From Actinomycetes bacterium (GTDB lineage: Bacteria; Actinomycetota; Thermoleophilia; BMS3ABIN01): a stretch of 64,000 nt of DNA. Numbering within the stretch: position 1 is the stretch's first letter; every line of letters starts with the position of its first letter. The translations under genes and the position numbers were made by a program. The notes under the pieces were generated by a model. The model ran no database searches. It had not been told where the DNA came from and was given only the letters and a program-made list of their open reading frames with translations. The stretch is taken from positions 13,422 through 77,421 of the forward strand of contig JAJYXB010000017.1 in assembly GCA_021791195.1 (NCBI GenBank). Direction: 5' to 3'. Below, in pieces: positions 44,159 through 64,000 of this stretch.

Positions 44159-45600
44159 CTAATTGCCAGCCTCGCCATGATTGCGGGCCGGTTTGAGCGG
44201 ATTTACCGACTTGAGCGGCTCAAGATAATTGCGGCCGTCCGCGAATTCCCGGGCTGATTTGAGGATGCGCCGCAGGTGGCTGAAGGTCAGCCGGCGGGTG
44301 GCCAGTCCCTTGATCAGCGGCACGGCCCGCTGCACCAGGACGCCGGAATTTACATATGCCGTGCGGTAGAGGCTGGCGAATTCCTTGTAGAACTCGGCCG
44401 GATCCAGCTTGGTTGGCACTACCGAGTGGAGAAAGTCGTACAGCTCGTAATTCCTGGTGACGATCTTGCCTTCGATCTCCCTGAAGAGGTCGGTGCCCGG
44501 CAGCGGCGTCAGCACGGTGAACTGGGGGACGTTGACGCCGTGGCTGGTAACGTAGTTGCGCAGCCGCTCGAACTCCTGGTGGCCGTAATCCGGGTTGATG
44601 ATGAAGGCGCCCGTGACCGATACGTCCTGTCCCCGGATGATCTTCAGCGCTGCGTCATTGGTGGCGACGCTGTTCTTCTTGTTCACCGCCTTGAGCTCTT
44701 CCTCGTCCAGGCTTTCAAAACCGATGAAAACGTGCGAAAGGCCGACCTTGTGCCATTTGGCGATGATCTCGGGATGCTTGACGATGGTATCGCTGCGCGC
44801 CTGAAAAGAATAGTGCTTCTTGATGCCGCGCGCCATGAGCAGATCGGCGATCGCATCCGCGCGCTTGACGCTCATCAGGAAATTGTCATCGGTGATCAGG
44901 ACAAACTTCTCTTTCAGCCGCGCCAGCTCCTCGACCACCCGTTCGGGGCTCTTGGTGCGGCAGCGTCCCTCGAAGAAGGCCCAGACGCTGCAGAAATTGC
45001 AGCGGTGCGGGCAGCCGCGGGCGGTCTCGATGGTCGCCAGCGGCTTCCAGAAATTGAAGAAGTAGCGCCGCCGCCGTCTCTTCGGCACGAGGTCCCGGGC
45101 AGGAAACGGCAAATCATCCATGTTGTCAACAGGCTTGCGCGCTCCGGTGGAGATCTGGCCATCCGCGGTGTTGAGCATCAGTCCCGGGACGCTGTTGAGG
45201 TCGCCGCCGTCCCGCAAAGTGTTGATCAGTTCAGGGGCGCCGAATTCGCCTTCGCCGATGACGATGGCGTCGATCGCCTCACCGCTGAAGTCAGAAGGAT
45301 TGAGTGAGGCATGCAGCCCGCCGATGAACACGAACGGGGCGCCATTGTCCTTGGCGACCTGCGCGATTTTCTGCGTGCGGAAGACATCGATGGTGAATGA
45401 GCAGCTGATGCCGACAGCATCGGGGCGGAAATCAGCCAGCGCCGGTTCCAGGTCGCCGTCGACACGCATGTCATGGATGCGCACCTCATGGTCCGGGACG
45501 AGCGCGCCAGCGACCATCTCCAGTCCGAGCGGCTCGACCAGGGCTACCTTGGTAAAGCCGGGCTTGCCAAACTGCGGTGGTTGTACCAGAAGAACTTTCA
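44159..45600 (-). CDS. B12-binding-domain radical SAM protein
   Basis: N-terminal Rossmann-like cobalamin-binding domain (MKVLLVQPP...AVGISCSF...FIGGLHAS). Radical SAM motif ARGCPHRCNFCSVW. ~480 aa. Confidence 0.75.
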
Positions 45601-45694
45601 TAGGTAAAAATTTCCCGATTTCAATGAAAAGCATCCTATTAGATTGGGTCAAAAAGTGCAATGCGGCGCTACCTGGCCGCATGGGCTCCGAACG

Positions 45695-47317: not shown

Positions 47318-47394
47318 TGGCGCCCCGAGAAGGATTCGAACCTTCGACCTACCGCTTAGGAGGCGGTCGCTCTCATCCTCTGAGCTATCGGGGC
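47318..47394 (-). tRNA. tRNA-Arg (anticodon CCT)
   Basis: Reverse complement folds as GCCCCGA-TAGCTCAGAGGAT...ACCGC-CTCCTAA-GCGGT...GGTTCGAATCC...TCGGGGC-G-CCA with encoded CCA. Anticodon loop CT-CCT-AA. Confidence 0.85.
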
Positions 47395-50824: not shown

Positions 50825-51658
50825 TCATCCGCGGTGCCGGTGGTCATGTTTTTCCACGTGGCTGTGCGGATGCGAGTGCTCGAGGCCGTCATGGCGGTGG
50901 GTGTGATAGTGCACCAGGTTGGCGCTGAGCAGCAGCTCCCGATCGGCCAGCACCTCCGCGGCCGGTCCCTCGCCGGCGAGCCGGTGATCTTCTCCCAGGA
51001 CTATCGCCCTGCTGGCGATGTGGGTGACGATGCCCAGGTCCTGGGTGGCGGTGATTATGGTCTTGCCGGCGCGGTTGAGCTCTGCCATCATCTGGATCAG
51101 GAATTCCTCCGTCTTGGGATCGAGACCCGCGGTGGGCTCGTCGAACAGCAGCACATCCGGGTTGATAGCCAGCACCGCGGCCAGCGCCACCTTCTTTTTC
51201 TCGCCGCCACTCAGGTGATATGGCGGCCGGTCGCGCAGATGTTCGAGACCCAGGATATGCAGCGTGTCCTTGACGCGTTCTTCGACCTCATCCTGGGGCA
51301 AACCCAGATGCAGCGGTCCGAAAGCAATCTCCTCCCAGACGTTGGGCGAGAACAGCTGTGCATCGGAGTTCTGGAACACGAAGCCGACACGGCGGCGGAA
51401 ACCCCGGGCGAAACCCTCGTCCTGAAGCGCGGTTTCGTCCAGCCTGCTGCCGAAGGCCCTGATCTGACCCCCGCTGGGGAAGATGAGTCCATCCAGCAGC
51501 TTGAGCAGCGTCGATTTGCCGGAGCCGTTCGCGCCCAGCAGGGCTAACTTCTCCCCGGCGTCCACCCTGAAGCCGATGCCGTCCAGGCCCGTGGCGTCCA
51601 TATAACTGTAACGGACAGCCTCGAGCTCGAATACCGGATGTGGGCCGCGCTCAGCCAA
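50825..51658 (-). CDS. cbiO: ECF-type ABC transporter ATP-binding protein (CbiO/NikO-like)
   Basis: Walker A GANGSGKST, LSGGEKKKVALA signature, Walker B LLFDEP. Probable TTG start overlapping the cbiQ stop. Confidence 0.8.
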   Translation of the reverse strand: MAERGPHPVFELEAVRYSYMDATGLDGIGFRVDAGEKLALLGANGSGKSTLLKLLDGLIFPSGGQIRAFGSRLDETALQDEGFARGFRRRVGFVFQNSDAQLFSPNVWEEIAFGPLHLGLPQDEVEERVKDTLHILGLEHLRDRPPYHLSGGEKKKVALAAVLAINPDVLLFDEPTAGLDPKTEEFLIQMMAELNRAGKTIITATQDLGIVTHIASRAIVLGEDHRLAGEGPAAEVLADRELLLSANLVHYHTHRHDGLEHSHPHSHVEKHDHRHRG

Positions 51659-52601
51659 GCAGGCGGTCGCCTCCCACAGCCGCAATCGCCAGCAGCAACG
51701 CCGCAACCAGCAGCAGCAGGTCTTGAGTGCGCATGCGAAAGGGCCTCATGGTCATCGGCTCGCCGTTGAAGCCGCGGCTGACCATGGCCGCGTAGATCTC
51801 GTCGCTGAGCGTGCTGGACTTGCCCAGCAGCGTCCCCATGCTGCTGGCGGCGAAGTGCCGGTCGTCACGGGGGCTGCCGGGGCCGACCATGCGGCTGCGT
51901 CTGGCTGTGAACATGTCGCTTGCCAGGCTGAGGAGCAGGAAGATATACCGGTACGCCATCGACAGGATCAGCACAAAGACACGCGGCACGTAAAAGATCC
52001 GCAGCGCCTTGAGCAGGTCGGACCAGCGCGTCGTCAGCGTCAGCAGTACCGCCAGCGACACCGACACCGCCACTCGGAGGATGAGGATGGCGGCGCCAGC
52101 GAGCCCCTGCCTGGTGATCGCCAGCGAGGTGCCAAGCGACCACGGGCCCAGACGCACCTCGTGGCCGAAACTCCAGATAGTGAACAGCGGGTCACCTGCT
52201 TTGACTACATTAAATATACTGGGTAAAACAATCACGCCGGCGAAGACGGGGATGAACAGCCAGACGCGCTTGATGAAAAATCTAAGCGACACCCGCGAAG
52301 AAGCGGCTGCCGCCAGAGTGAGCGCATAGAGGGTCAGCAGCAGGAGGGGTGTCCGGATGATCGCCGCCGCCATCAGCAGCGCCAGCAGCCCGGCGCTCTT
52401 GGCCCGCGGATCGGTGCGCTGCAGCAATCCCTGCCGCGCCGCAATCTGCTCGGAGAAGACGCTGGTCCTGAGCGCGTGCGCCATCCCCTGGATCGTCCGT
52501 TCCACCGCGCTGCGCCGGCGCCTGCGGCCGCTGGTGGCTGGAGCTTTCGCGCCGGCAGCGGCGATCATCCACCGTGGCAGTGTCGGCTCAGTTTCAATCA
52601 C
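51651..52601 (-). CDS. cbiQ: ECF transporter transmembrane T component (CbiQ/NikQ-like)
   Basis: Polytopic membrane protein between M and O components. Start possibly at internal ATG. Confidence 0.6.
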   Translation of the reverse strand: MIETEPTLPRWMIAAAGAKAPATSGRRRRRSAVERTIQGMAHALRTSVFSEQIAARQGLLQRTDPRAKSAGLLALLMAAAIIRTPLLLLTLYALTLAAAASSRVSLRFFIKRVWLFIPVFAGVIVLPSIFNVVKAGDPLFTIWSFGHEVRLGPWSLGTSLAITRQGLAGAAILILRVAVSVSLAVLLTLTTRWSDLLKALRIFYVPRVFVLILSMAYRYIFLLLSLASDMFTARRSRMVGPGSPRDDRHFAASSMGTLLGKSSTLSDEIYAAMVSRGFNGEPMTMRPFRMRTQDLLLLVAALLLAIAAVGGDRLLG

Positions 52602-53601
52602 TTTTTTTTGTCCTGTGTATCAACTTGACCGCGAGAAAAGTCAGGCCGCCGACTATGGCCAGGCCGATCGCGGCGGAGGCCATATACCCGGGCACCGAGG
52701 ACCAGAAGCTGCCCCGCACGCCGTAATGCGGCAGTATTCCACTCCAGAAGCCCGAAAACCTGTTCATCCCTTCGGGGATGAAGCCGAAACGCCGGCGGAT
52801 ATCCTCGGGGCTCCACTCGCCCCAGGCCGTCGCCGTGGCCAGCAGACCCAGCGGCACGAAGATGAGCATCAGCAGCAACCCGATCAGCAGCGGCCGCAGC
52901 CGTGGGCCGGCTGCTGGCGCGGCGGCTTTCTCACCCGCCAGCAGGCCGATGCGCGCCCGCTGCAGGTAAACGACGGCCAGGGCGGTCACCCCCGCTTCCA
53001 CGAAGCCGATCACCGTCAGGTGCACCAGCATCATCGCCGGGATCGTCTGCGAAAGGCCGTAAGGCGAGTACAGCGCCGTACCGTTGGCGGTGTGGAAGAG
53101 GCCGGGCTGGATGCCAACCTCGAGCGCGACCAGGAAAGCGGAAACGTTGAGGCCGACATATGCGCCGATGCCGGCGCCGATCCAGCGGCGCGCTCCCCGG
53201 GGGGAGGAGCCGGCTGAAATCAGTCGGTATACATAATAGCCGACGATTGGCAGGATGAATGCCATGTTGAAGCAGTTGGCGCCGATGGCGAGGATGCCGC
53301 CGTCACCAAAGAAGAGCGCCTGGATCACCAGCGCCACCGTCAGCGCGATCACCGCCGCCCACGGTCCCAGCGTTACCGCCACCAGCGTGCCGCCCACCGC
53401 GTGCGCTGAGGTTCCACCAGGCACGGGGATGTTGAACATCATGATGACGAACGTGAACGCCGCCCCGATAGCCACCAGCGGCGCCTGCCGCTGCCTGAGC
53501 GTCCGCTTGACCTTGTGGCCGGCGGTGTACCAGACGGGCACCATCATCGCCCACAGGCCGCCCGCGGTCTGCGGGCTGATGTAGCCATCGGGTATGTGCA
53601 T
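52594..53601 (-). CDS. cbiM: fused CbiM/CbiN (NikMN-type) substrate-capture component of Ni/Co ECF transporter
   Basis: Starts MHIPDGY, the Met1-His2 metal-coordinating N-terminus diagnostic of CbiM/NikM. C-terminal extension with an extra TM (CbiN-like). 335 aa. Confidence 0.8.
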   Translation of the reverse strand: MHIPDGYISPQTAGGLWAMMVPVWYTAGHKVKRTLRQRQAPLVAIGAAFTFVIMMFNIPVPGGTSAHAVGGTLVAVTLGPWAAVIALTVALVIQALFFGDGGILAIGANCFNMAFILPIVGYYVYRLISAGSSPRGARRWIGAGIGAYVGLNVSAFLVALEVGIQPGLFHTANGTALYSPYGLSQTIPAMMLVHLTVIGFVEAGVTALAVVYLQRARIGLLAGEKAAAPAAGPRLRPLLIGLLLMLIFVPLGLLATATAWGEWSPEDIRRRFGFIPEGMNRFSGFWSGILPHYGVRGSFWSSVPGYMASAAIGLAIVGGLTFLAVKLIHRTKKSD

Positions 53602-53737
53602 GCGTTTCTCCTTTCAGATCCCCGTCTTCCGCTGGGACCTTCAGCCATGCCGGACCGTACGCAGCCTTCAGGCTGCGTACGGGCCTCCGTGGTCCTCCTC
53701 GCCTTCCGGCTTGATATTGGCGACATCTCCGGCGTTA

Positions 53738-55186
53738 TTACACGGCAACGAATGCGCCCCTGAGTTCTGCATGAAGGGGACGATGCGCTAACAGATATTT
53801 TCGCATCGCATCAATAATCCGTTCAGACTGATTTTCGCGAATGCGGCCGTATTGCCGAGGGACCCCTTGCGGAGTGACGAATGCCGCTGTATAGTTCCGG
53901 CCGGGCTGAACCTCCTCATTGCCTGCAAACAGTTTTTGAATACGGTGTCCAGGCGGATTCTCTATCTTGAAGTAGACATTAAGACCGAGACAGCGCTTGA
54001 CATATCCTCCCATTTGCTGATACGGATCGCATGAAAACGTCCTCTCAAGATTCTCCTCCAGCATTGTCCTGATTTCCTCCCCGGTCAGCTCTACTGTGGA
54101 GACGGGCGGGTTCATGGGAATGATATTGTAAAGGTCATTCAAGGTTATCTGTCCCGGGACTACTGGTGCGCCGTAGCGCCAGCCATTTGAAAACGCCAAT
54201 TGCGCCCCCGTGTTTTCAAGCAGGGCCTGAAGGAGGAAGTTGTCCATGGTAGTTTCCAGAGTTGTGCCCCTGTTGAGCGCTGTGACAGTTTCACCGACAA
54301 CCTCCGAGAGATCATTCTTATAGGGTGCGAGTGCCCGTCTTACCGGTTCATCCACTGTGGGGTCAGGTTGCGTGGCTGCTTCGACCTCAATCAACCGGTG
54401 CCGGTAATCCATGATCTGGCCGTCTGCCACCTCCAGGTCCAGGCGACCCAAAAAAGAACCATGGCAGCCTGACTGTATAACAATAGTTTTCCCATTGAGA
54501 ACCGGTTTATAAAGACGGTTGTGGGTGTGGCCGCTGAGACAAATATCGATGCCGTGCACCTCGGACAGAAGCTTCATCTCCTGAGGGAACCCGAGGTGCG
54601 AGAGCAAGACAATGAAGTCCACCTTTTCCCGGGCGCGCAGCACATCGATAACTGGCGGGAGTTCATCCTTTCCCAGGGTAAAGGATATGCCTTCGCTGTA
54701 GGAAGGCGGCATGGTCTTGTCCACAATATTTGAGGCTATCCCCACAAGGCCGATCCGTAATCCGCCGGTCTCTTTTACGACATACGCCGGAAAGACCGGC
54801 TTGCTTGTCTCCTGATCGTAGACATTGTTTGCCAGCATCGGATATTCAAGCTCGGCGACCCGCTGCTGGAACACCTTCGGGCCATAAGCAAATTCCCAGT
54901 GAGCGGTCATGGCATCAAGTCCCAACGAATTCAAAACAGGGATCAAAGCCTGTCCCTGGGTGTTCAGGGCAGGATAGGTGCCATGCATGGTATCGCCGCA
55001 GTCGCAAAAGAGAATCCGTCCCCGGCTCTCAGCTCGAATCTGTTTTACGATCGTGGCGATGCGAGCGTAACCACCCACGGGACGGTATACAGCGCGGCCG
55101 CCCTGCCAGAACATTTCCTGATGTAAATCAAAATATGCGTGGCTGTCGTTCATTTGGACTATTGTGAGCTTGTTGCTCCCACTCAT
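53738..55186 (-). CDS. bifunctional metallophosphatase/5'-nucleotidase family protein
   Basis: MSGSNKLTIVQMNDSHAYFD..., GDTMHG and GHTHN motifs. Start at internal ATG with AGGAGGAGAA RBS. No signal peptide. Confidence 0.75.
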   Translation of the reverse strand: MSGSNKLTIVQMNDSHAYFDLHQEMFWQGGRAVYRPVGGYARIATIVKQIRAESRGRILFCDCGDTMHGTYPALNTQGQALIPVLNSLGLDAMTAHWEFAYGPKVFQQRVAELEYPMLANNVYDQETSKPVFPAYVVKETGGLRIGLVGIASNIVDKTMPPSYSEGISFTLGKDELPPVIDVLRAREKVDFIVLLSHLGFPQEMKLLSEVHGIDICLSGHTHNRLYKPVLNGKTIVIQSGCHGSFLGRLDLEVADGQIMDYRHRLIEVEAATQPDPTVDEPVRRALAPYKNDLSEVVGETVTALNRGTTLETTMDNFLLQALLENTGAQLAFSNGWRYGAPVVPGQITLNDLYNIIPMNPPVSTVELTGEEIRTMLEENLERTFSCDPYQQMGGYVKRCLGLNVYFKIENPPGHRIQKLFAGNEEVQPGRNYTAAFVTPQGVPRQYGRIRENQSERIIDAMRKYLLAHRPLHAELRGAFVAV

Positions 55187-55350
55187 TCTTCTCCTCCCTT
55201 CCGTTATTCCATTGTATCTTTTTGTGCGGATTCCACCGCCACAAACCAGGAACCAGACATGCGCAGCATTCAGACATTGCGTCGCCCCGTCTCCATCTCC
55301 TGCCTCTCGACTGGCAGGCAAGAAATTGGCGTGCCCTGAGAAAATATTGG

Positions 55351-56673
55351 CTAAGAAGCCTCCCGCTCTTTCAGGGGCTCCGCGAGCAGGCCTGGCCGCA
55401 AGAGCAGGAAGAACGCGTAGGCTAGCAACACGGCCGCGCCGGCCAAAACCGCCGAATCGGGGCCGATGACGCCACCGAGCCAGCCGAAACCGAGCGATGA
55501 GAACGGTTGCATGCCCATGAAACACAGGACGAATAGAGCCATGACGCGACCGCGCAGCCGGGGCGGGGCGGCCCACTGCACCCCGGTCATCGCGGTCGCC
55601 GAACCGGTGAGTAACGAGGCGCCTGCCAGCGACACCAGTCCCACGGACAGGTAATAGTTGCGGGAAAGCGAGAATGCCAGCAGCGCTGCTCCCATGCCCA
55701 GCACGGCGGCGCGGATGAGCAGTCCGCGGCGGACGCGCGGCGGCAGGCTGGCGACAAACAGGGCGCCGATCACAGCTCCCAGCCCGCTTGCCCCCATCAG
55801 CACCGCATAACCGGTTGCGCCCTGCCCAAGGACCTGCGCCGCGATCACCGGCATGAGCGTGATGTACGGCATGCCGAACAACGATAGCATCAAAACGCTG
55901 ATCAGCAGCCAGGCAACCTGCCGGTTCTCGCGTGTGTATTTCAAACCGGCGGTCAGCGTACTGAGCGCACCGCCGCAGCTACGCGCATGCTGCTCCTGCC
56001 GCGGATGGATCAGCGCCAGAGCCGCTATCACGAACAGGAAGCTGATGGCGTTGACGTAGAAGACCTCGGCGGCGCCGTAACGCGCGAAAACGAGGCCGCC
56101 CAGCAATGGACCGAGCAGGCGGGCGCCGTTGAACTGGGCCGCGTTGAGCGCGACGGCGTTAAGCAGCGATTTCTTCGGCACGATATCCGGCAACATCGCC
56201 TGCCAGGCGGGGAAAACGAATGCCGTGATGACGCCGCCGAACAGAACCAGCCCGCCGATTAATACGATTGTGATGGCGTTTACCTGGGTGAGCCGCGCCA
56301 GCAGGAGCGCCTGAATCATCAGCAGGGTTTGAGCCACGATGATCAGTCGTTTACGGTTGAGGCGATCAGCGAACAGTCCCGCGAAAAGCGTCAGCAGCGT
56401 CGTCGGCAGGAAGTTGAGGAAGTTGATGACGCCCAGGGCGGCGGAGGGGTTGCCTGCCTTGGTGATGTCATAGACGACCCAGCCGACAGCGACCGTCTGC
56501 ATCCAGGTGCCGATGTTGGAGATCAGCGCGCCGCTCCAGAAGTAGCGGTAATCCCGGTGCCGGAATGATTTGAACGGACTCCTCTCGCGCCCCCGGACAG
56601 CTTCGGGACAGGTTTCAACCGTTGCTTCAATCGAATAGGTATCCTTATCGGGCTCACTCTCCGAATTGACCAT
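55351..56673 (-). CDS. MFS transporter
   Basis: 12-TM major facilitator. Start at internal ATG MVNSE. Confidence 0.75.
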   Translation of the reverse strand: MVNSESEPDKDTYSIEATVETCPEAVRGRERSPFKSFRHRDYRYFWSGALISNIGTWMQTVAVGWVVYDITKAGNPSAALGVINFLNFLPTTLLTLFAGLFADRLNRKRLIIVAQTLLMIQALLLARLTQVNAITIVLIGGLVLFGGVITAFVFPAWQAMLPDIVPKKSLLNAVALNAAQFNGARLLGPLLGGLVFARYGAAEVFYVNAISFLFVIAALALIHPRQEQHARSCGGALSTLTAGLKYTRENRQVAWLLISVLMLSLFGMPYITLMPVIAAQVLGQGATGYAVLMGASGLGAVIGALFVASLPPRVRRGLLIRAAVLGMGAALLAFSLSRNYYLSVGLVSLAGASLLTGSATAMTGVQWAAPPRLRGRVMALFVLCFMGMQPFSSLGFGWLGGVIGPDSAVLAGAAVLLAYAFFLLLRPGLLAEPLKEREAS

Positions 56674-56889
56674 GCCGTGCGTCCCATCCGTTTCAGGAAA
56701 TGTTATTGTCTGAAAGCTCAAAAGCCTGCGGGAACCGAACTTTAAAATGTTGGGGATATCCGCTGTACAAGAATAAAATGTCCTTATTAATCCGGGGCCA
56801 AACATGCGCGCTATTTTGTCATATTGCTAAATAGTGTTATAGTCCAAGCCGCAGGAACGCAGAAGCAACCGTTTTTCGATTTTGCCGGC

Positions 56890-57020
56890 GTCCCCAAAAA
56901 ATAGCCGGCGTCCCGAATAAATAGCCCGGCGTCCGAAAAAATAGCGCCAGCAGCGTCCCGCCGGCCGTCAGCGAGAAAGGTGTCCCGGATAAAAAGCCCG
57001 GCGTCACGGGAAGATTTTTC
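56890..57020. repeat. tandem ~21-nt repeats (AATAGCCGGCGTCCcGAAAAAA-like, 3 clear + 2 degenerate copies) with phased A-tracts
   Basis: Seen directly in the divergent MFS/thiM intergenic region. Produces a repeated DAGLFIRD peptide in an antisense ORF. Confidence 0.55.
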
Positions 57021-57136
57021 GTGACTGGAGATGAGTAGGGTATTATCTGGGCAGAGAGGCCTTTTACCGCTTCGTTTAGTCCGGGGCTTCTCCCCGGACC
57101 GTCCCGGAGTAAGTGCAAAAGCTGGAAAGGATATAA

Positions 57137-57952
57137 ATGATGGAAATCGAAGCAAGTGCGATTGAGTTACTCGCCAGAGTCAGGCAAAAAGCCCCGCTGA
57201 TTCATAACATCACTAATTTTGTTGTCATGAACAGTTCTGCCAATATCCTGCTGGCGATCGGCGCTTCACCTGTCATGGCCCACTGTCAGGCGGAAGTTGA
57301 AGAGATGACCTCCATGTCCAGTGCCCTGGTGCTCAACATCGGCACCATCCAGGAAGATTGGCTCGACTCCATGATCTGTGCCGCCAAAACCGCAAATTCC
57401 GTTGGCATACCGGTAATTCTTGATCCTGTTGGTGCGGGGGCTACCAGACTCCGCACCGACGCCATCAACGAAATAATGGGGAAAGCCTCTATCTCTGTCC
57501 TGCGAGGAAACTGTTCAGAAGTGCTTTCTCTTGGATCTTCCGGTATCAAAACCAAAGGAGTTGATACTTCCCTTTCATTATCCGACCAGACTGTTGAGGC
57601 CGCCAGGCAAATGGCAGTTGACAAGAAGTGTGTCATCGCGATTTCGGGAGAAGAAGATTGCATCACTGATGGCCACCAGGTTTTCCGCGTGCGAAATGGC
57701 CAGCCGCTGATGACCAGGGTAACAGGGTCCGGCTGTGGACTTACGGCAGTGACCGCCGCTTTTTGTGCAGTCGCGGAAAACAGCCTTGCCCTGGCAACGG
57801 CGGCCGCTTTTGGTTATTACGGACTTTGCGGTGATTTAGCGGTAAAAACAAGTGACAAACCGGGCAGCTTTCATGTCGCTTTCATCGATCAGCTATATTC
57901 AACGGGGGACGAAGAGATCAGGGAGCATCTGAAGATAAAAGAAGTTTGCTGA
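57137..57952 (+). CDS. thiM: hydroxyethylthiazole kinase
   Basis: ...PLIHNITNFVVMNSSANILLAIGASPVMAH...VLRGNCSE...GSGCGLTAV... ThiM signature. 271 aa. Confidence 0.85.
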   Translation: MMEIEASAIELLARVRQKAPLIHNITNFVVMNSSANILLAIGASPVMAHCQAEVEEMTSMSSALVLNIGTIQEDWLDSMICAAKTANSVGIPVILDPVGAGATRLRTDAINEIMGKASISVLRGNCSEVLSLGSSGIKTKGVDTSLSLSDQTVEAARQMAVDKKCVIAISGEEDCITDGHQVFRVRNGQPLMTRVTGSGCGLTAVTAAFCAVAENSLALATAAAFGYYGLCGDLAVKTSDKPGSFHVAFIDQLYSTGDEEIREHLKIKEVC

Positions 57953-58094
57953 CGTCAATGCAGAAATGTTAGCCATCGCTCGCAATGGAGGCACCGTCGG
58001 CTCAGTTCCGTGAGCCTCCGGCGGAAACGCTTCCCTTTCTATAATCACCAGCGCCGCCGTCACCGCGCTCGCCGTAGCCCGCGGCCCCAGCCCG

Positions 58095-58277
58095 CTAGTC
58101 AAGGTAGATTTTATGCTCGAGCAGTTTCAGCTCCCTGATCCTGGCCTTCAGTGTCTTTTGCTGGCCAAGGATATCGGTCAGGGTGATGTTTCCGCCCTCA
58201 ACGCTGATGACGGCGACGTCCTGCATCACCTCTTTCTCATGGCCATCAGTGACAAGGTAAGCGTTCATTTCACACAT
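58095..58277 (-). CDS. cooT: CooT-family nickel-binding protein-like
   Basis: ~60 aa starting MCEMNAYLVTDGHEKEVMQDVAVISVEGGNITLTDIL. Matches the CooT pattern MC(x)...L...G...E(I/V)..DV...EGG.(I/V).(L/V)T.(L/I)(F/L) with Cys2. Confidence 0.6.
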   Translation of the reverse strand: MCEMNAYLVTDGHEKEVMQDVAVISVEGGNITLTDILGQQKTLKARIRELKLLEHKIYLD

Positions 58278-58387
58278 AAGTAACTCCTGTCCCGCAGTTT
58301 TCGAGTCCTGCCCCAAGTCTAATTACCGCGACGCGGAAAAACCAATCCTGCGCATTTCCCGGACGGCCAAGACACCAGGCCAAGCCG

Positions 58388-60691
58388 CTAATGGGGGAGA
58401 TGGAAGGGAACGGTGGTGACTACGACCTTGGGCAGTGGCTGCAGCGCTCGCTTCAGCCGCGGCGCGTTCTGATTGTGCAGGATCCGGTGCCACCAGTGAC
58501 GGACGATAATCTCCGGGACTATCACGGTCAGCGTCAGATCCGGGCGCTGGTGGTGCAGTGACCAGATGTAGTGGACCATCGGCGCTATAATCGCGCGGTG
58601 CGGGGAAACGATGACGTGGAGCGGCAGGTGATTGCCCCAGGTGCGCCAGTAGTCGCGGAAGCGTTCGGCTTCGCTCCCTGTAGGACTGATATGCAGCGCC
58701 AGCACAGGTTGCTGAAATGATGCCGCGTAAGCCAGTGCACGCAGGCCGGCGAGGTCCAGCGTGGCCATCGGCACAATCGCCAGATGATGGATCTCCCCGG
58801 GGGTTTCCTCTACCTCGGCTTCGGCCTCATGATTCGTTCTGGCCGCATTTTGCCGCCTGGCAGGCGACGTCAGCCGTCCGGCGCCGCCAGGCCGGAGGGC
58901 GGGCTCGTACCGGGGAACTTCCCCGGTGGTATGGGGATGCAGGGCGAGTGCTTGGTCAACCATGTCATAGTAGCGGCGGATGCGAAGCGCCGCGAGTATG
59001 AACAGCACGATCACGAGTATGGCGGCCCAGGCGCCTGCGGTAAACTTGGTGATCCCGGCGGTGATGAAAACAATCGCCGAGAGTGATGCTCCGGTGGCAT
59101 TGAACGCCATGCTTTTCCGCCAATGAGCTTCATTGCGATGGCGCCACCAGTGGACTACCATCCCGGTTTGTGACATTGTGAATGCCAGGAACACGCCGAC
59201 GGCAAACAGCGGGATAAGGGCCTCTGTCTGGCCGCCGAACACGACGTAGATCACAGCAGAAGCCACCGAGAGCGCAATGATACCGTTGCTGAACCCCAGC
59301 CGGTCCCCGATCGCGAGGAAAAGCCGCGGCGCCTGCCGGTCCCTGGCCATCAGGAACAGTAGCCGCGGCAAGTCATTATAAGCGGTGTTTGCCGCCAGAA
59401 GCAGGATCGCGGCTGTTGACGCCTGGGTGAACATGTACATTAAACCAGGGCCGAAGTTGCTGTGAGCAAGTTGGGACAGGACGGTCTCGCTCTGATTGGG
59501 CACCACCCCGTCGAGCATCACCAGGGCGATTGTGCCGGCGAATAGTGCGATCAGAAGGCTGATCATCCATGTCAGGGTCGTGCGGGCATTGCGCCACTCG
59601 ACCGGCTGGAAAGCCGGCACCGCGTTGGAGATGGCTTCAATGCCGGTCATGGCCGTGGATCCGGAGGCGAACGCGCGCAGCACCAGCAGCACGCCGACCC
59701 CTTCGGCTGCGGTCAGCCGGGGCCTGGGGAGAGGTTGCCAGCCCCGGCCGGCGGCATGAACGGCACCAACGGCCACCAGGGCTCCGATCGCGGCGATAAA
59801 CGCGTAGGTCGGCAGGGAAAACATTGTTCCCGCCTGGCGTACGCCACGCAGGTTGCCGGCCAGCAGCAGTGCGATAACGCCGACTCCTATCACTACTGTG
59901 TCAGGTGTCAGTGAAGGAATTGCCGAGGTAATCGCAGCAACGCCGGAGGATACTGACACGGCGACCGTCAGGATGTAGTCGGTCGCCAGTCCGGCTGCGG
60001 CGACAAGGCCCGCCACCCGGCCGAGATTGTCCCCGGCCACCAGGTAGGACCCGCCGCCGAACGGGTAGGCGCGGATGGTCTGACGGTACGAAACACCGAC
60101 GGCCAGCATCAGGAAGGCGATCACGGCAGAAATCGGCAGCGTGTAACTCAATCCGGCGGTTCCAGCTAGAACGAGAATTGCCAGCATCGCCTGGGGTCCG
60201 TATGCGATCGACGAGATTGCATCGGCTGAGAGCACCGGCAAGGCCACCAGCTTGCGCATGCGCTCAAGAGCGATCGCAGTCACGGCAAGAGGGGGGCCCA
60301 GCAATATTCGGCGGACAGTGCCTGCTGCCCGGCCTTTCCAAGATGACGGTGCTTCCGTCTCGCTGGTTGTCCTGATCGCCGGCAGCTGCCCGTTACGCCC
60401 GGCAAGCCGCACAAAGCGTCCGAATCGGGTGGGCCGAATCGCCCTGGGGGCGGGATACCTGCCAAGATCGGGGTCCACCGGCAGCGCACTCCGCCACTCC
60501 TCGGGATTGCCGGCCGCTCCCCCCCAATCGCGCCCGACAACACTTAACGCCTGCAGCTGTTTATCATCCAGTTCCGGCAGCAACACGTCAGGGTTCGGCG
60601 CACCCGCATACTCGCCCTCTTGATTGCCGGGCTCGTTGCCGTCCTTCGATCCGGCCGAACCAGACCACGGCTCTTGGCGCGCTTTCCCCAT
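58388..60691 (-). CDS. APC-superfamily amino acid/polyamine permease with ~250-aa C-terminal cytoplasmic domain
   Basis: ...RRILLGPPL...LERMRKLVALPVLSADAISSIAYGPQAM... N-terminal signature and 12 TM helices. True start may be an internal GTG near 60316 (low-complexity N-terminus). Confidence 0.7.
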   Translation of the reverse strand: MGKARQEPWSGSAGSKDGNEPGNQEGEYAGAPNPDVLLPELDDKQLQALSVVGRDWGGAAGNPEEWRSALPVDPDLGRYPAPRAIRPTRFGRFVRLAGRNGQLPAIRTTSETEAPSSWKGRAAGTVRRILLGPPLAVTAIALERMRKLVALPVLSADAISSIAYGPQAMLAILVLAGTAGLSYTLPISAVIAFLMLAVGVSYRQTIRAYPFGGGSYLVAGDNLGRVAGLVAAAGLATDYILTVAVSVSSGVAAITSAIPSLTPDTVVIGVGVIALLLAGNLRGVRQAGTMFSLPTYAFIAAIGALVAVGAVHAAGRGWQPLPRPRLTAAEGVGVLLVLRAFASGSTAMTGIEAISNAVPAFQPVEWRNARTTLTWMISLLIALFAGTIALVMLDGVVPNQSETVLSQLAHSNFGPGLMYMFTQASTAAILLLAANTAYNDLPRLLFLMARDRQAPRLFLAIGDRLGFSNGIIALSVASAVIYVVFGGQTEALIPLFAVGVFLAFTMSQTGMVVHWWRHRNEAHWRKSMAFNATGASLSAIVFITAGITKFTAGAWAAILVIVLFILAALRIRRYYDMVDQALALHPHTTGEVPRYEPALRPGGAGRLTSPARRQNAARTNHEAEAEVEETPGEIHHLAIVPMATLDLAGLRALAYAASFQQPVLALHISPTGSEAERFRDYWRTWGNHLPLHVIVSPHRAIIAPMVHYIWSLHHQRPDLTLTVIVPEIIVRHWWHRILHNQNAPRLKRALQPLPKVVVTTVPFHLPH

Positions 60692-60986
60692 AAGCTGCTC
60701 CTGCGGATTGGAGCCACAACCGGGGCTGCGACAGCCGCCGGCTGCTTTACGTAATGCAGCTAGGTTCCCCGCCTGATTCTCTACATAAACAACTTCTTTC
60801 CTGATGTTTTAATTATGAAGCAGACCTTTGTCAAAATACCGTTTACCTGATTCAGGATACAAAAGGTATTCGGTTCCTGCCGCTCAGCTTAAGTTTTTGC
60901 CGGCATTTCCGACTAAACGTAGGCGCGTCACGGGCAGTTTTTCCGGCAGCGGCGCGTCGGGCGGGCAACGGCTTGCGGGAGGGCGC

Positions 60987-63299
60987 ATGCAACAGGACGA
61001 ATTGAAACCGGTTCCAGACAGCGAATTTTTCGCGGGGCGCAAGCGCGCGCCCTGGCTCGTGTACACGATCGCATCGCTGGGCCTGGTGATCAATATCGTC
61101 TACTTTGGTTCGGAGGCGGTTTCGAAAGGCGAGAGCGGCTTCGAGGCGCACCTGACCGGCAGCCTCCTCGAACATGTGGTCATTCTGTCACAGGTCTTCA
61201 TCTTTCCTGTGATCGCCTATCTGGCGCACCGGATCATCGTCGGCCGCCAGCTGGACGAATACTCGCGGCGCCTGGAGCTCGAAGTGGCGGCGCGCACCAG
61301 GGAGCTGGAAGACCTGAAGTCCTTCAGTGAAAACATCATGGCCAGCGTCAACGATCTCATCTTCGTCATCGGCTCTGACGGCCGGTTTCAGTTTGTCAGC
61401 GGCAACTGCGAGAAGGTCCTCGGCTACGCGCCGGAGCAGCTCATCGGCAGCCAGTACATCGATCTGGCGGCGCCGGGAGCGGTGGCCATGGCGCTGGGTA
61501 ACTTCGAGCGCATCATGCGCGGCGAGGAGGTTCCTGCTTACGAGATCGAGATGGTCGACGTCGCGGGAGAACGCAAGTTTGTCGAGGTTGTGAGCACTCC
61601 CTACTGGGAATGCGGGCGGGTACTAGCCCAGGTCGGAGTCGCGCGCGACGTCAGCGAGCGCAAACGTCTGGAGCAGCAGGTGTTCGATCGCAACCGCGAA
61701 TTTGCCGCGCTGAACGCTGTCTCCAGCGCAGTGGGCCAGTGGCTGGACCTCGACCAGGTGCTGCGGGCGGCCCTGGAGCAGGTCGCGACGCTGTTCACCG
61801 CCCACCGCGCCTGGATGCATGTCGTCGATCCGGACACCGGCGAGCTGTGCCTGCGGGTCTGGAAGGGCGGCAGCGATGAGTTCATCCGGGGAATCAACCG
61901 GATAAAACCGGGCGAGGGTCTGGTGGGAATGGCGGCCGAACGCGGCGAGGCCATCGCCCGGAACCTGGACCAGGATTATCCTGCCGATACCGTTGAGCTG
62001 GTTGCCGGCGAGGGACTGAAGTCGATCGCCGCGATCCCGATGAAGTCAAAAGGCGGACTGATCGGCGTCATGGGTCTGGGCAGCGAGCGCCCCGACCGTT
62101 TTTCCCGCACCGATCTGGACCTGCTGGGATCGGTGGCCAGCCAGGTGGCCATGGCCGTGGAAAACGCGCTCCTGTTTGAAGACCTCAAGGGGAAGACGCA
62201 GCAGCTGACCTCCCAGAACGAAGAGCTGGCTTGGACAACCAACCAGATCAGCAAGCTCATCAAGGTGGCCGAGCGCGAGAAGAGTTTTGCGGTCAGGTAC
62301 GAGAATCCACATCTGGCGGCATGCTGGGAGGTGAAACAGTGCTCGCAGTCCGACTGTCCTTCGTACAAGTCGAGCAATCTGCGCTGCTGGCAGGTTGCCG
62401 GCACACACTGTGGCGGCGAGGCGCAGGGAGTCTTCGCCCAGAAGCTGGGGAATTGCGAGCGCTGCGAGGTCTACCGGCTGGCGCGGGCCGACAGGCTTAA
62501 TTCCATCGGTGAGGACTTCAATAACATGATGGCGATGCTGGAGCAAAAGGTTGAGGAACAGCATCAGTTGCAGGAACAGCTGGTACACTCGACCAAGCTG
62601 GCCGCCATCGGCGAGCTGGCGGCCAATATTGCCCACGAGATCAACAATCCGCTCACCGGCGTGCTTGGCTATGCGGCGCTACTGAAACAGGCAGCCCCGG
62701 CGGATGACCCGAATACAAAGAACCTGATGGTGATTGAGAATGAGACCTTGCGCGCCCGTGACATCGTCCGCAATCTGCTTGATTTCGCGCGTCAGGACAG
62801 TCTCAAGAGAAGGAAGATGTCAATCAATGACGTAGTCGGCGATACGCTCAGCCTGCTGCGCAAGCAGGCCGAGCTGTCAAACGTAGCCGTCAGCGTCGAA
62901 GTCGATGAAGCACTGCCTCATGTCCGTGTCGATGCAAACCAGATAAAGCAGGTGTTTATCAACATCATCAATAACGCGCTTCATGCAATGCCCGGGGGCG
63001 GGCGCCTGGACATCGCCGTCAGGGCGGCCAAGCCCGACGGCCGCCGGCCGTGGGTGGAGGTTGTCTTCGCCGACACCGGAGACGGCATTGCGCCAGAGAA
63101 GCTCGGCCGCGTCTTCGATCCTTTCTTCACCACGAAAGACGCCGGCAAGGGCACGGGTCTGGGGTTGTCGGTATCGCAGCGGATCATCGAGGAGCACGGG
63201 GGAGTTATCGAGGTTGCCAGCCTGCCCGGAAGCGGTTCAACCTTCACGGTCAAGCTACCGACGGCAAATGTATCCACAGGCTTCAAAAGCGTGGCATAA
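60987..63299 (+). CDS. sensor histidine kinase with 2 TM, PAS, GAF, a 7-Cys insert, HisKA and HATPase_c
   Basis: GGGAGGG RBS before ATG at 60987. H-box ANIAHEINNPL. G-boxes DTGDGI / GTGLGLSV. Cys-rich segment CWEVKQCSQSDCPSY...C...THC...C..C between GAF and HisKA. Confidence 0.8.
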   Translation: MQQDELKPVPDSEFFAGRKRAPWLVYTIASLGLVINIVYFGSEAVSKGESGFEAHLTGSLLEHVVILSQVFIFPVIAYLAHRIIVGRQLDEYSRRLELEVAARTRELEDLKSFSENIMASVNDLIFVIGSDGRFQFVSGNCEKVLGYAPEQLIGSQYIDLAAPGAVAMALGNFERIMRGEEVPAYEIEMVDVAGERKFVEVVSTPYWECGRVLAQVGVARDVSERKRLEQQVFDRNREFAALNAVSSAVGQWLDLDQVLRAALEQVATLFTAHRAWMHVVDPDTGELCLRVWKGGSDEFIRGINRIKPGEGLVGMAAERGEAIARNLDQDYPADTVELVAGEGLKSIAAIPMKSKGGLIGVMGLGSERPDRFSRTDLDLLGSVASQVAMAVENALLFEDLKGKTQQLTSQNEELAWTTNQISKLIKVAEREKSFAVRYENPHLAACWEVKQCSQSDCPSYKSSNLRCWQVAGTHCGGEAQGVFAQKLGNCERCEVYRLARADRLNSIGEDFNNMMAMLEQKVEEQHQLQEQLVHSTKLAAIGELAANIAHEINNPLTGVLGYAALLKQAAPADDPNTKNLMVIENETLRARDIVRNLLDFARQDSLKRRKMSINDVVGDTLSLLRKQAELSNVAVSVEVDEALPHVRVDANQIKQVFINIINNALHAMPGGGRLDIAVRAAKPDGRRPWVEVVFADTGDGIAPEKLGRVFDPFFTTKDAGKGTGLGLSVSQRIIEEHGGVIEVASLPGSGSTFTVKLPTANVSTGFKSVA

Positions 63300-63305
63300 C
63301 CGACT

Positions 63306-63701
63306 TTGGGGGGAAAAGTGATCGACGAAAATGTGCTGGTTGTGGACGACGAGGAAGTCATCCGGGATGTCTGCGCGAAGATACTCGAGTCGAAAGGGTA
63401 CCGTGTGACTACGGCTGCCAGCGGCAGGGAGGCGCTGCGCCTTGTCAGCGAGACAGATTTTGATGTGGTTGTCACCGACATCATGATGCCCGACATGACC
63501 GGCCTGGAGCTGCTGGAAGTGATCAAGAGCACAAACCTGGATGTGAGCACCGTGGTCATTACCGGCCTGGGCACCTTTGACATGGCGACACAGTCAGACA
63601 GGTTGGGAGCGCGTGAATTCGTGGTAAAACCATTCACTCCCGACGAACTCAGCCGCGCGGTGCACAAGGCGCTGGCCAAGCGTGAGCTGAAGACCGGCTA
63701 G
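63306..63701 (+). CDS. stand-alone CheY-like response regulator receiver
   Basis: LVVDDEEVIRDV...DVVVTDIMMPDMTG...KPF receiver motifs. No output domain. Confidence 0.8.
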   Translation: MGGKVIDENVLVVDDEEVIRDVCAKILESKGYRVTTAASGREALRLVSETDFDVVVTDIMMPDMTGLELLEVIKSTNLDVSTVVITGLGTFDMATQSDRLGAREFVVKPFTPDELSRAVHKALAKRELKTG

Positions 63702-64000
63702 TCGCTCGGGCGGAAGCGCAGCTTCCACACCATCAGCATCGCCTCCAGCACGATTCGCCGCGACATCTTTGATTGCCCCAGTTCCCGGTCGGCGAATGTG
63801 ATCGGAATCTCCCTGACGCGGAATCCCCGCCTGAGCGCCTTGTAAGTAAGCTCGATCTGAAACCCGTAGCCCTGCGACGACACCCGGTCCAGGTCCAGCG
63901 CTTCCAGCACCTCGCGGCGGAAACATTTCAGCCCGCCTGTGAGATCGTTTACCTTGACGCCCAGCACCCATTTGGCATAAAGGCCGCCGCCGCGGCTGAT
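63698..64000 (-). CDS. GT2 polyprenol-phosphate mannosyltransferase-like (Ppm1/DPM1 family), 3' part; gene runs off window end
   Basis: C-terminal ...GYGFQIEL...RGFRVREIPITFADRELGQSKMS typical of dolichol/polyprenol-phosphate mannose synthases. Confidence 0.7.
   Translation of the reverse strand: MSRGGGLYAKWVLGVKVNDLTGGLKCFRREVLEALDLDRVSSQGYGFQIELTYKALRRGFRVREIPITFADRELGQSKMSRRIVLEAMLMVWKLRFRPSD

Follow-up and report, generated by a model that had tools for sequence, protein, structure and literature searches.

Seven invariant cysteines of a two-CW domain in a Thermoleophilia sensor kinase: a candidate metal centre within a HAMP-like transmitter

We describe a segment of seven cysteines in a sensor histidine kinase that is encoded within a stretch of 64,000 nucleotides (the window) from an Actinomycetes bacterium of the Thermoleophilia (contig JAJYXB010000017.1). 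The segment is real and strongly constrained. It belongs to the NCBIfam family NF045718 ("two_CW_domain"), its cysteines are conserved across that family, and it is found at the transmitter position, between the input domains and the kinase core. The two-CW domain is a mostly helical module of about 50 residues. In our preferred reading, for which we consider the chances evenly balanced, it forms a Cys7 metal centre and gates the kinase from within a HAMP-like transmitter.

The seven cysteines were located at residues 499, 505, 510, 520, 528, 543, and 546 of the kinase (segment 499-546, nt 62322-62465). Their codons start at positions 62322, 62340, 62355, 62385, 62409, 62454, and 62463, and the spacing is C-x5-C-x4-C-x9-C-x7-C-x14-C-x2-C. 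An earlier reading of the DNA, made from its sequence only, had reported this spacing and had placed the segment between the GAF and HisKA domains at 62300-62480; both statements were exact. The remaining 775 residues of the kinase contain three cysteines, and at that rate a stretch of 48 residues would hold at least seven with a probability of 8e-10, so the cluster is not the product of chance. Residues 498-553 are matched by NF045718 with 44.1 bits (E = 2e-11). Since this score exceeds the curated cut-off of 35, the insert is, as judged by the profile, an ordinary member of a family that is catalogued and functionally uncharacterised, and nothing structural sets the window segment apart from it. 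The family is named for two Cys-Trp dipeptides, which in the window domain are C499-W500 and C520-W521. The seven cysteines of the window domain fall in family columns where Cys makes up 99-100% of 156 copies and never varies among 120 stand-alone proteins. The suggestion of a kinase of an undescribed type therefore did not hold; the family comprises approximately 1,200 clusters at 50% identity.

Pfam scans of the window domain and its relatives returned no model for the two-CW family, and neither the window sequence nor a profile of 121 sequences matched any PDB chain at a threshold as loose as E ≤ 10. In the literature library searched, no paper was found that uses the two-CW name or the NF045718 accession, and broader searches for cysteine-rich kinase modules gave nothing relevant; the family is apparently unstudied. 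A word-indexed homologue search with the 70-residue domain alone gave no match, and the full scan and the profile search did match. Our own profile detected no second two-CW domain in the window.

All seven cysteines are invariant in 37 orthologous kinases that share 56-99% full-length identity, which answers the conservation check that had been proposed for them. The phmmer scan with the window domain was exhaustive over 1.84 billion cluster representatives (50%-identity clusters) and gave 1,177 representatives at E ≤ 1e-3 and 378 at E ≤ 1e-10. In the 156 domain copies found in the best 150 of the 1,177 representatives, six of the cysteines are 100% conserved and the seventh 99%, and R32, W34, G38, T39, Q46, G47, A50, and K52 are each conserved in at least 90%. 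A profile search recovered 1,411 proteins, the best 120 of which are stand-alone proteins of 62-141 aa without any Pfam domain. These have the same seven cysteines, typically in the pattern MNCWEFKKCGR...CPAYP...CW.VAGT.CGG.VQGTFAQKL.NC..C.FY, and two such relatives are named "two-CW domain-containing protein" by NCBI. Since stand-alone forms exist, the two-CW domain is an autonomous unit that folds on its own. The surroundings of three stand-alone genes were uninformative, each being a single gene amid housekeeping genes. Among 73 multidomain representatives, HATPase_c was found in 48, HisKA in 47, a receiver in 28, GGDEF in 7, and MCPsignal in 3, and PAS, GAF, Cache, or HAMP domains are also present in many of them. 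Nine proteins carry two copies each. One protein with 10 apparent copies (P0222) was rejected as a false positive, being a repeat protein with no relation to the family.

A scan of one genome per species gave at least 556 confirmed two-CW sites, and the taxonomy and gene context were taken from 80 loci kept of these. The 80 loci are distributed among Thermoleophilia, Gaiellales, and other Actinomycetota, many Nitrospirota and Thermodesulfovibrionia, and also Desulfobulbales, Deferribacteres, Planctomycetota, and Omnitrophota. Nearly all of them come from metagenome genomes of groundwater, deep mines, and hydrothermal sites, and several genomes hold multiple copies. The cluster members that were looked up are all from uncultivated organisms, which probably accounts for the missing experiments on this family. 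The two-CW family is large, its chemistry is strictly conserved, and in many signalling proteins of poorly studied anaerobes it occupies the point at which the output is decided.

The window kinase has the features by which a two-component sensor kinase is recognised: a HisKA domain with the conserved histidine, a HATPase_c domain, and an adjoining receiver gene (Table 1). The phospho-accepting His603 (62634-62636) lies in the H-box AHEINNP, 57 residues past the last cysteine. The open reading frame encodes 823 aa when read from a TTG codon. The true start is probably ATG 60987, giving 770 aa, because a database protein from a "Thermoleophilia bacterium" (P0001) that is 99% identical to the window kinase has a length of 770 aa. 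The pair of hydrophobic helices is probably the membrane anchor of the kinase, with no large outside domain in the topology that we infer. No Pfam family was matched within residues 447-594, the interval that includes the two-CW domain. The receiver gene begins 7 nt past the kinase stop and keeps this downstream place in each of the ten orthologous loci (L001-L008, L010, and L017). The receiver is a probable cognate partner of the kinase, and the term "orphan" that had been applied to it was a misnomer.

The linker that joins the GAF domain to the cysteine core ends in a conserved lead-in, SF-x-VR[YF]-x-NP-x-L, and the last cysteine is directly followed by a conserved helix, ADRLNSIGEDFNNMMAMLEQ in the window. 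The AS2 helix of HAMP domains carries the motif DEIGxLxxxFNxM. The consensus for the outgoing helix of the two-CW domain is D-x-[IL]-x-x-[IL]-G-E-x-F-N-N-M, which resembles the AS2 pattern D-x-I-G-x-L-x-x-x-F-N-x-M, and the window has the GExFNNM form. In 115 of 157 copies the offset of a G[ED]x[F]Nx[M] motif is the same, and its E and F are conserved in at least 90% of a 73-protein alignment. In tandem proteins each two-CW copy is followed by its own AS2-like helix, and these tandem copies resemble the generally known poly-HAMP arrays. Like HAMP, the two-CW domain stands between input domains and outputs of the DHp, GGDEF, or MCP type, and its coupling to DHp is heptad-periodic; it differs from HAMP in having a Cys7 core of about 50 residues in place of a short connector.

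The HAMP likeness was also examined by profile comparison. Pfam HAMP (PF00672, gathering score 25 bits) has no match at E ≤ 1 in the native kinase, and none in ten C-terminal flanks taken alone. A profile of the flank was aligned by hhalign with the AS2 helices of nine canonical HAMP domains that occur in this protein set, both sets being picked by motif. The alignment had a probability of 92.7% with a score of 28.8, and 30 column-shuffled profiles scored at most 15. The alignment of the N-terminal flank with HAMP was no better than that of shuffled controls. Deletion of the cysteine core in silico, with the flanks joined, gave matches to Pfam HAMP in five of ten constructs (E of 6e-4 to 0.17; 12.7-20.5 bits). 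These matches span the junction and cover profile positions of approximately 11-51 of 53, and no other family recurs. We conclude from these comparisons that the cysteine core appears to sit in a degenerate HAMP-like scaffold, which is not a HAMP domain by the Pfam criterion. In more distant GAF kinases a PAS domain occupies the two-CW slot. In proteins with a transmembrane segment and a canonical HAMP domain, the two-CW domain is downstream of both, which makes it cytoplasmic.

The distance from the last cysteine to the phospho-accepting histidine was determined for 91 kinases. Distances of 55 (33 kinases), 62 (9), and 69 (10) form one heptad-periodic series and 57 (10) and 64 (14) another; the two series cover 76 of the 91 kinases, and the window value of 57 falls in the second. 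Linker lengths with heptad periodicity are the expectation for rigid coiled-coil coupling. In the AlphaFold2 (AF2) monomer model, long helices flank the cysteine core, and the outgoing helix (501-569, 770-aa numbering) is unbroken into DHp helix 1. The sequence-only reading had put the segment where the signal would be passed to DHp, a placement that is borne out by the heptad-periodic spacing and the continuous predicted helix.

The Cys7 core likely binds a metal: a cage is favoured because seven invariant cysteines are held in a fixed spacing with invariant small or polar neighbours. Further pointers are the Cys-Pro at the third cysteine (P24, 87% of copies) and the conserved aromatic residues beside several of the cysteines. 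The pattern of seven or eight cysteines, the helical fold, and the occurrence in genomes from anoxic habitats only lean towards a putative iron-sulfur (Fe-S) cluster. An eighth cysteine, in a C-P-C arrangement, is present in 28% of the copies (in the 70-aa domain of the window, the positions concerned are 13 and 25). The first Trp is missing from 32 of the 43 copies with the eighth cysteine and from 10 of the 113 others (Fisher p = 2e-15, uncorrected for phylogeny), the first CW becoming CY, CH, or CS. These copies probably constitute a subfamily with a different ligand set.

In NreB and AirS, cytoplasmic Fe-S clusters with cysteine ligands set the kinase activity according to O2 or redox state, and the known clusters of Fe-S sensor kinases are found inside PAS or GAF folds with about four cysteines. 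The chloroplast sensor kinase CSK is reported to be an Fe-S-containing sensor kinase with a redox-related role (PMC6949291). The two-CW domain has no sequence similarity to these three kinases, and its seven cysteines are carried by a separate small helical domain beside DHp. As they lie outside both the PAS (168-280) and GAF (307-446) domains, the arrangement is not of the NreB type. No Fer4 family was matched at E ≤ 1 in the window domain or 120 relatives, and the CxxCxxCxxxCP spacing is absent; the WhiB and other Fe-S families of Pfam, and its ZAS and zinc-ribbon families, likewise gave no match at that threshold. The CxxC reads KLGNCERC, with no His four residues before it as in the ZAS motif HxxxCxxC. 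The view that the segment is not a ferredoxin, NreB, WhiB, or ZAS motif was thus upheld. WhiB-like (Wbl) proteins are small, helical, [4Fe-4S]-binding sensors of O2 and NO that are rich in cysteine and have a conserved Trp. They differ from the two-CW domain in that they have four cysteines with another spacing, are limited to actinobacteria, and are transcription factors. The CZB domain is a metal-based cytoplasmic module that is common to chemoreceptors and diguanylate cyclases; it is a four-helix bundle with a 3His/1Cys zinc site, and neither its sequence nor its fold matches the two-CW domain.

Zinc is a serious rival to the Fe-S assignment, because there is no ferredoxin-like spacing and the kinase already has PAS and GAF sensors. 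The seven cysteines would hold one or two Zn ions, for example as a binuclear Zn2Cys7 site with a bridging thiolate, and the domain would rigidify the HAMP-like connector and only transmit what the PAS and GAF domains sense. The constant transmitter position of the two-CW domain, also after a canonical HAMP and in tandem pairs, is consistent with such a role, as are the absence of CxxCxxC spacing and of any Fe-S Pfam match and the presence of noise-level matches to zinc fingers (zf-primase in 9 of 121, best E of 0.018). However, the stand-alone versions of 63 aa have nothing to transmit, and the strong source bias to the anoxic subsurface would be left unexplained. No zinc ribbon or zinc finger was recognised, neither the sequence nor the fold being matched by any known Zn-binding family, and AF2 gives short helices in place of zinc-ribbon beta-hairpins; the refuting case of a known structural zinc ribbon was therefore not encountered. 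For Zn sites an odd number of invariant cysteines is unusual, and 28% of the copies have the optional eighth cysteine. On balance we regard a purely structural zinc module as rather unlikely. A metal-free thiol/disulfide switch, in which reversible oxidation of cysteines alters the conformation of the linker, would suit the cytoplasmic location and high cysteine density. One or two cysteines normally suffice for such a switch, however, and seven invariant cysteines at fixed spacing with invariant Gly, Thr, Gln, and Lys residues suggest a ligand cage, so we judge this switch to be very improbable.

For the metal-centre reading, the following mechanism can be envisaged. The long helix from the GAF domain would lead into the cysteine core, spliced in a HAMP-like junction, and the AS2-like helix would lead out as one continuous coiled coil into DHp helix 1 and His603. 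The state of the metal centre, which may be the oxidation, damage, or loss of a cluster or the binding of a ligand, would alter the packing of the flanking helices. The most probable centre is an Fe-S cluster, which would respond to redox state, O2, or NO. The change in packing would shift the register of the DHp coiled coil and so switch autophosphorylation, with phosphotransfer to the adjoining single-domain receiver. Nickel or metallo-enzyme economy is a plausible output in this Thermoleophilia lineage, because the kinase-receiver pair is ancestrally divergent from a CooT/CbiM(N)QO operon; any control of the nickel genes would be indirect, since the receiver has no DNA-binding domain. In its broadest form, which we put forward as a tentative possibility, the two-CW domain would be a hitherto unrecognised sensory variant of the HAMP transmitter, with a Cys7 metal cluster (Fe-S or other) for a connector. 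The redox state or integrity of the cluster would be read directly as a shift in coiled-coil register, in over 1,000 kinases, cyclases, and chemoreceptors from anaerobes of the subsurface, and in this Thermoleophilia lineage the domain would link cluster status to nickel acquisition through CooT and CbiMQO.

Several observations weigh against this proposal. Seven ligands give no clean fit to two tetrahedral Zn sites or to two 4Fe-4S clusters, and with PAS and GAF sensors already in the kinase the cysteine module may have a structural role only. Modelled alone by AF2, the domain shows only short helices, at a moderate pLDDT (predicted local distance difference test) of 70, and in the full-length model the two-CW pLDDT is below 50. 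The hhalign comparison is partly circular because both sets were chosen by motif pattern, the resemblance of the junction to HAMP stays under the Pfam threshold, and the core-deleted construct of the window itself gave no Pfam HAMP match. As to the nickel link, the nickel operon has its own terminator-bearing leader in nine of the ten orthologous loci, and in the window four genes (5'-nucleotidase, MFS transporter, thiazole kinase, and APC-family permease) lie between the nickel genes and the kinase. A convergent family-2 glycosyltransferase (GT2) gene and then an FmdE-family gene are also kept in the orthologous loci, so the conserved block is wider than the kinase and nickel genes and the synteny may reflect common descent.

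If the centre is an Fe-S cluster, the two-CW domain would be a compact cluster-based input beside the kinase core, unlike the PAS- or GAF-embedded clusters known so far, and the stand-alone protein of 63 aa would offer simple biochemistry.

What the window adds to an otherwise ordinary family member is a conserved nickel-uptake neighbourhood. CooT serves CO dehydrogenase as a nickel accessory protein, and energy-coupling factor (ECF) systems of the NikMNQO type import nickel (PMC11247825). The gene calls for CooT and for the Ni/Co ECF importer that had been made from the sequence were right by Pfam. In the ten orthologous loci, one strand encodes CbiO, CbiQ, CbiM, and CooT in this order, the kinase-receiver pair adjoins them divergently on the other, and in nine of the ten the operon is headed by a DUF3842 gene (147 aa; L001:3947-4390, - strand). 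The DUF3842 gene is missing from the window, and the place adjoining the kinase is taken by an APC-family permease gene (58388..60691, - strand). The GC content is 51-54% at window positions 53500-55300 and 56500-58000 and 62-66% around them. These low-GC stretches correspond to the 5'-nucleotidase and hydroxyethylthiazole kinase genes between CbiM and CooT; the low GC, together with the adjacency of CbiM and CooT in the orthologous loci, suggests that they are later insertions that split the CbiM/CooT block. The synteny supports, and does not prove, a functional link that may exist between the kinase and the nickel genes. No gene for a nickel enzyme (CO dehydrogenase, hydrogenase, or urease) was found among 20 open reading frames scanned at 38.8-60.7 kb.

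A conserved leader of approximately 116 nt was found ahead of the DUF3842-CooT-CbiMQO operon at L001:4409-4525 (- strand), with equivalents in L002-L008 and L010. It lies behind a promoter-like TTGACT/TATGTT pair and is composed of two small hairpins with CGAA loops, the first of which shows compensatory changes, followed by a 10-bp terminator stem and a U-run. A covariance model found the leader once per locus, at 80-125 bits, in the nine DUF3842-bearing loci, and did not find it in the window or in L017. Rfam has no match to the leader and nothing near the locus in the window or the orthologous loci. The leader is a candidate cis-regulator (attenuator or riboswitch) of the nickel-uptake operon that would act independently of the kinase.

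This neighbourhood bears on a further alternative, implied by the earlier reading, that the Cys7 site binds Ni or Co and that the kinase-receiver pair adjusts uptake through CooT and CbiMQO. The divergent arrangement with CooT and CbiM(N)QO in ten loci is what such a nickel- or cobalt-specific sensor would lead one to expect, and a thiolate-rich site could bind Ni. A separate orthologue group of two-CW kinases in Nitrospirota and Thermodesulfovibrionia (L012, L016, L019, L020, L023, L024, L029, L030, and others) adds to this, as it is found among genes for FTHFS, FolD, 5-FTHF cyclo-ligase, and a CbiA/CooC-type ATPase. The neighbours of this group are for the most part genes of the Wood-Ljungdahl methyl branch. 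However, the two-CW domain occurs in approximately 1,200 clusters, often several per genome, and in kinases, GGDEF proteins, and chemoreceptors whose genes lie in unrelated surroundings; one paralogue group of Thermoleophilia kinases lies among infB, truB, and pnp. The adjacency of the kinase and the nickel genes is broken in the window genome, the operon has a cis leader of its own in nine loci, the receiver lacks a DNA-binding output, and the synteny that extends to the GT2 and FmdE genes may be inherited gene order. We therefore consider a sensor specific for nickel or cobalt improbable. The proximity to nickel genes on which the earlier reading had remarked is thus conserved as a divergent arrangement in ten loci, and nickel-specific sensing is unlikely because the domain occurs in many paralogues and unrelated contexts.

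Table 1. Positions of the kinase domains, the receiver, and the nickel genes in the window
Feature	Position	Strand	Basis and remarks
Sensor histidine kinase open reading frame	60828..63299	+	823 aa; likely start ATG 60987, 770 aa; P0001
Two hydrophobic helices, residues ~75-98 and ~113-139, short loop between	61050..61244	+	Sequence; AF2 helices 22-45 and 60-121 (770-aa numbering)
PAS domain, residues 168-280	61329..61667	+	Pfam PAS_4, E 1.1e-11
GAF domain, residues 307-446	61746..62165	+	Pfam GAF_2, E 1.5e-23
Helical linker from GAF to cysteine core, residues 447-487	62166..62288	+	AF2 helix 374-439 (770-aa numbering); lead-in conservation
Two-CW domain, residues 488-557	62289..62498	+	NF045718 match (residues 498-553, nt 62319-62486); own profile 112.5 bits
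HAMP AS2-like helix ADRLNSIGEDFNNMMAMLEQ, residues 554-573	62487..62546	+	Fixed-offset motif; hhalign; AF2 helix 501-569
HisKA/DHp domain, residues 595-658	62610..62801	+	Pfam HisKA, E 2.2e-16
HATPase_c catalytic domain, residues 702-813	62931..63266	+	Pfam, E 1.2e-26
Single-domain CheY-like response regulator, 131 aa	63306..63701	+	Pfam Response_reg, E 3.3e-30; no further domain
CooT-family nickel chaperone gene, probable start at the Met of MCEMNAY	58095..58316	-	Pfam CooT, E 2.7e-23
ECF-type Ni/Co importer: CbiM-PDGLE fusion, CbiQ, ATP-binding cassette (ABC) ATPase	50825..53601	-	Pfam

Three further genes of the window were recorded. A family-2 glycosyltransferase gene (63698-64000, - strand) is convergent with the receiver gene. 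A gene for a B12-binding radical SAM protein (44159-45682, - strand) and a tRNA gene (47321-47394, - strand; Rfam, 71 bits) are also present, with no link to the kinase seen for either.

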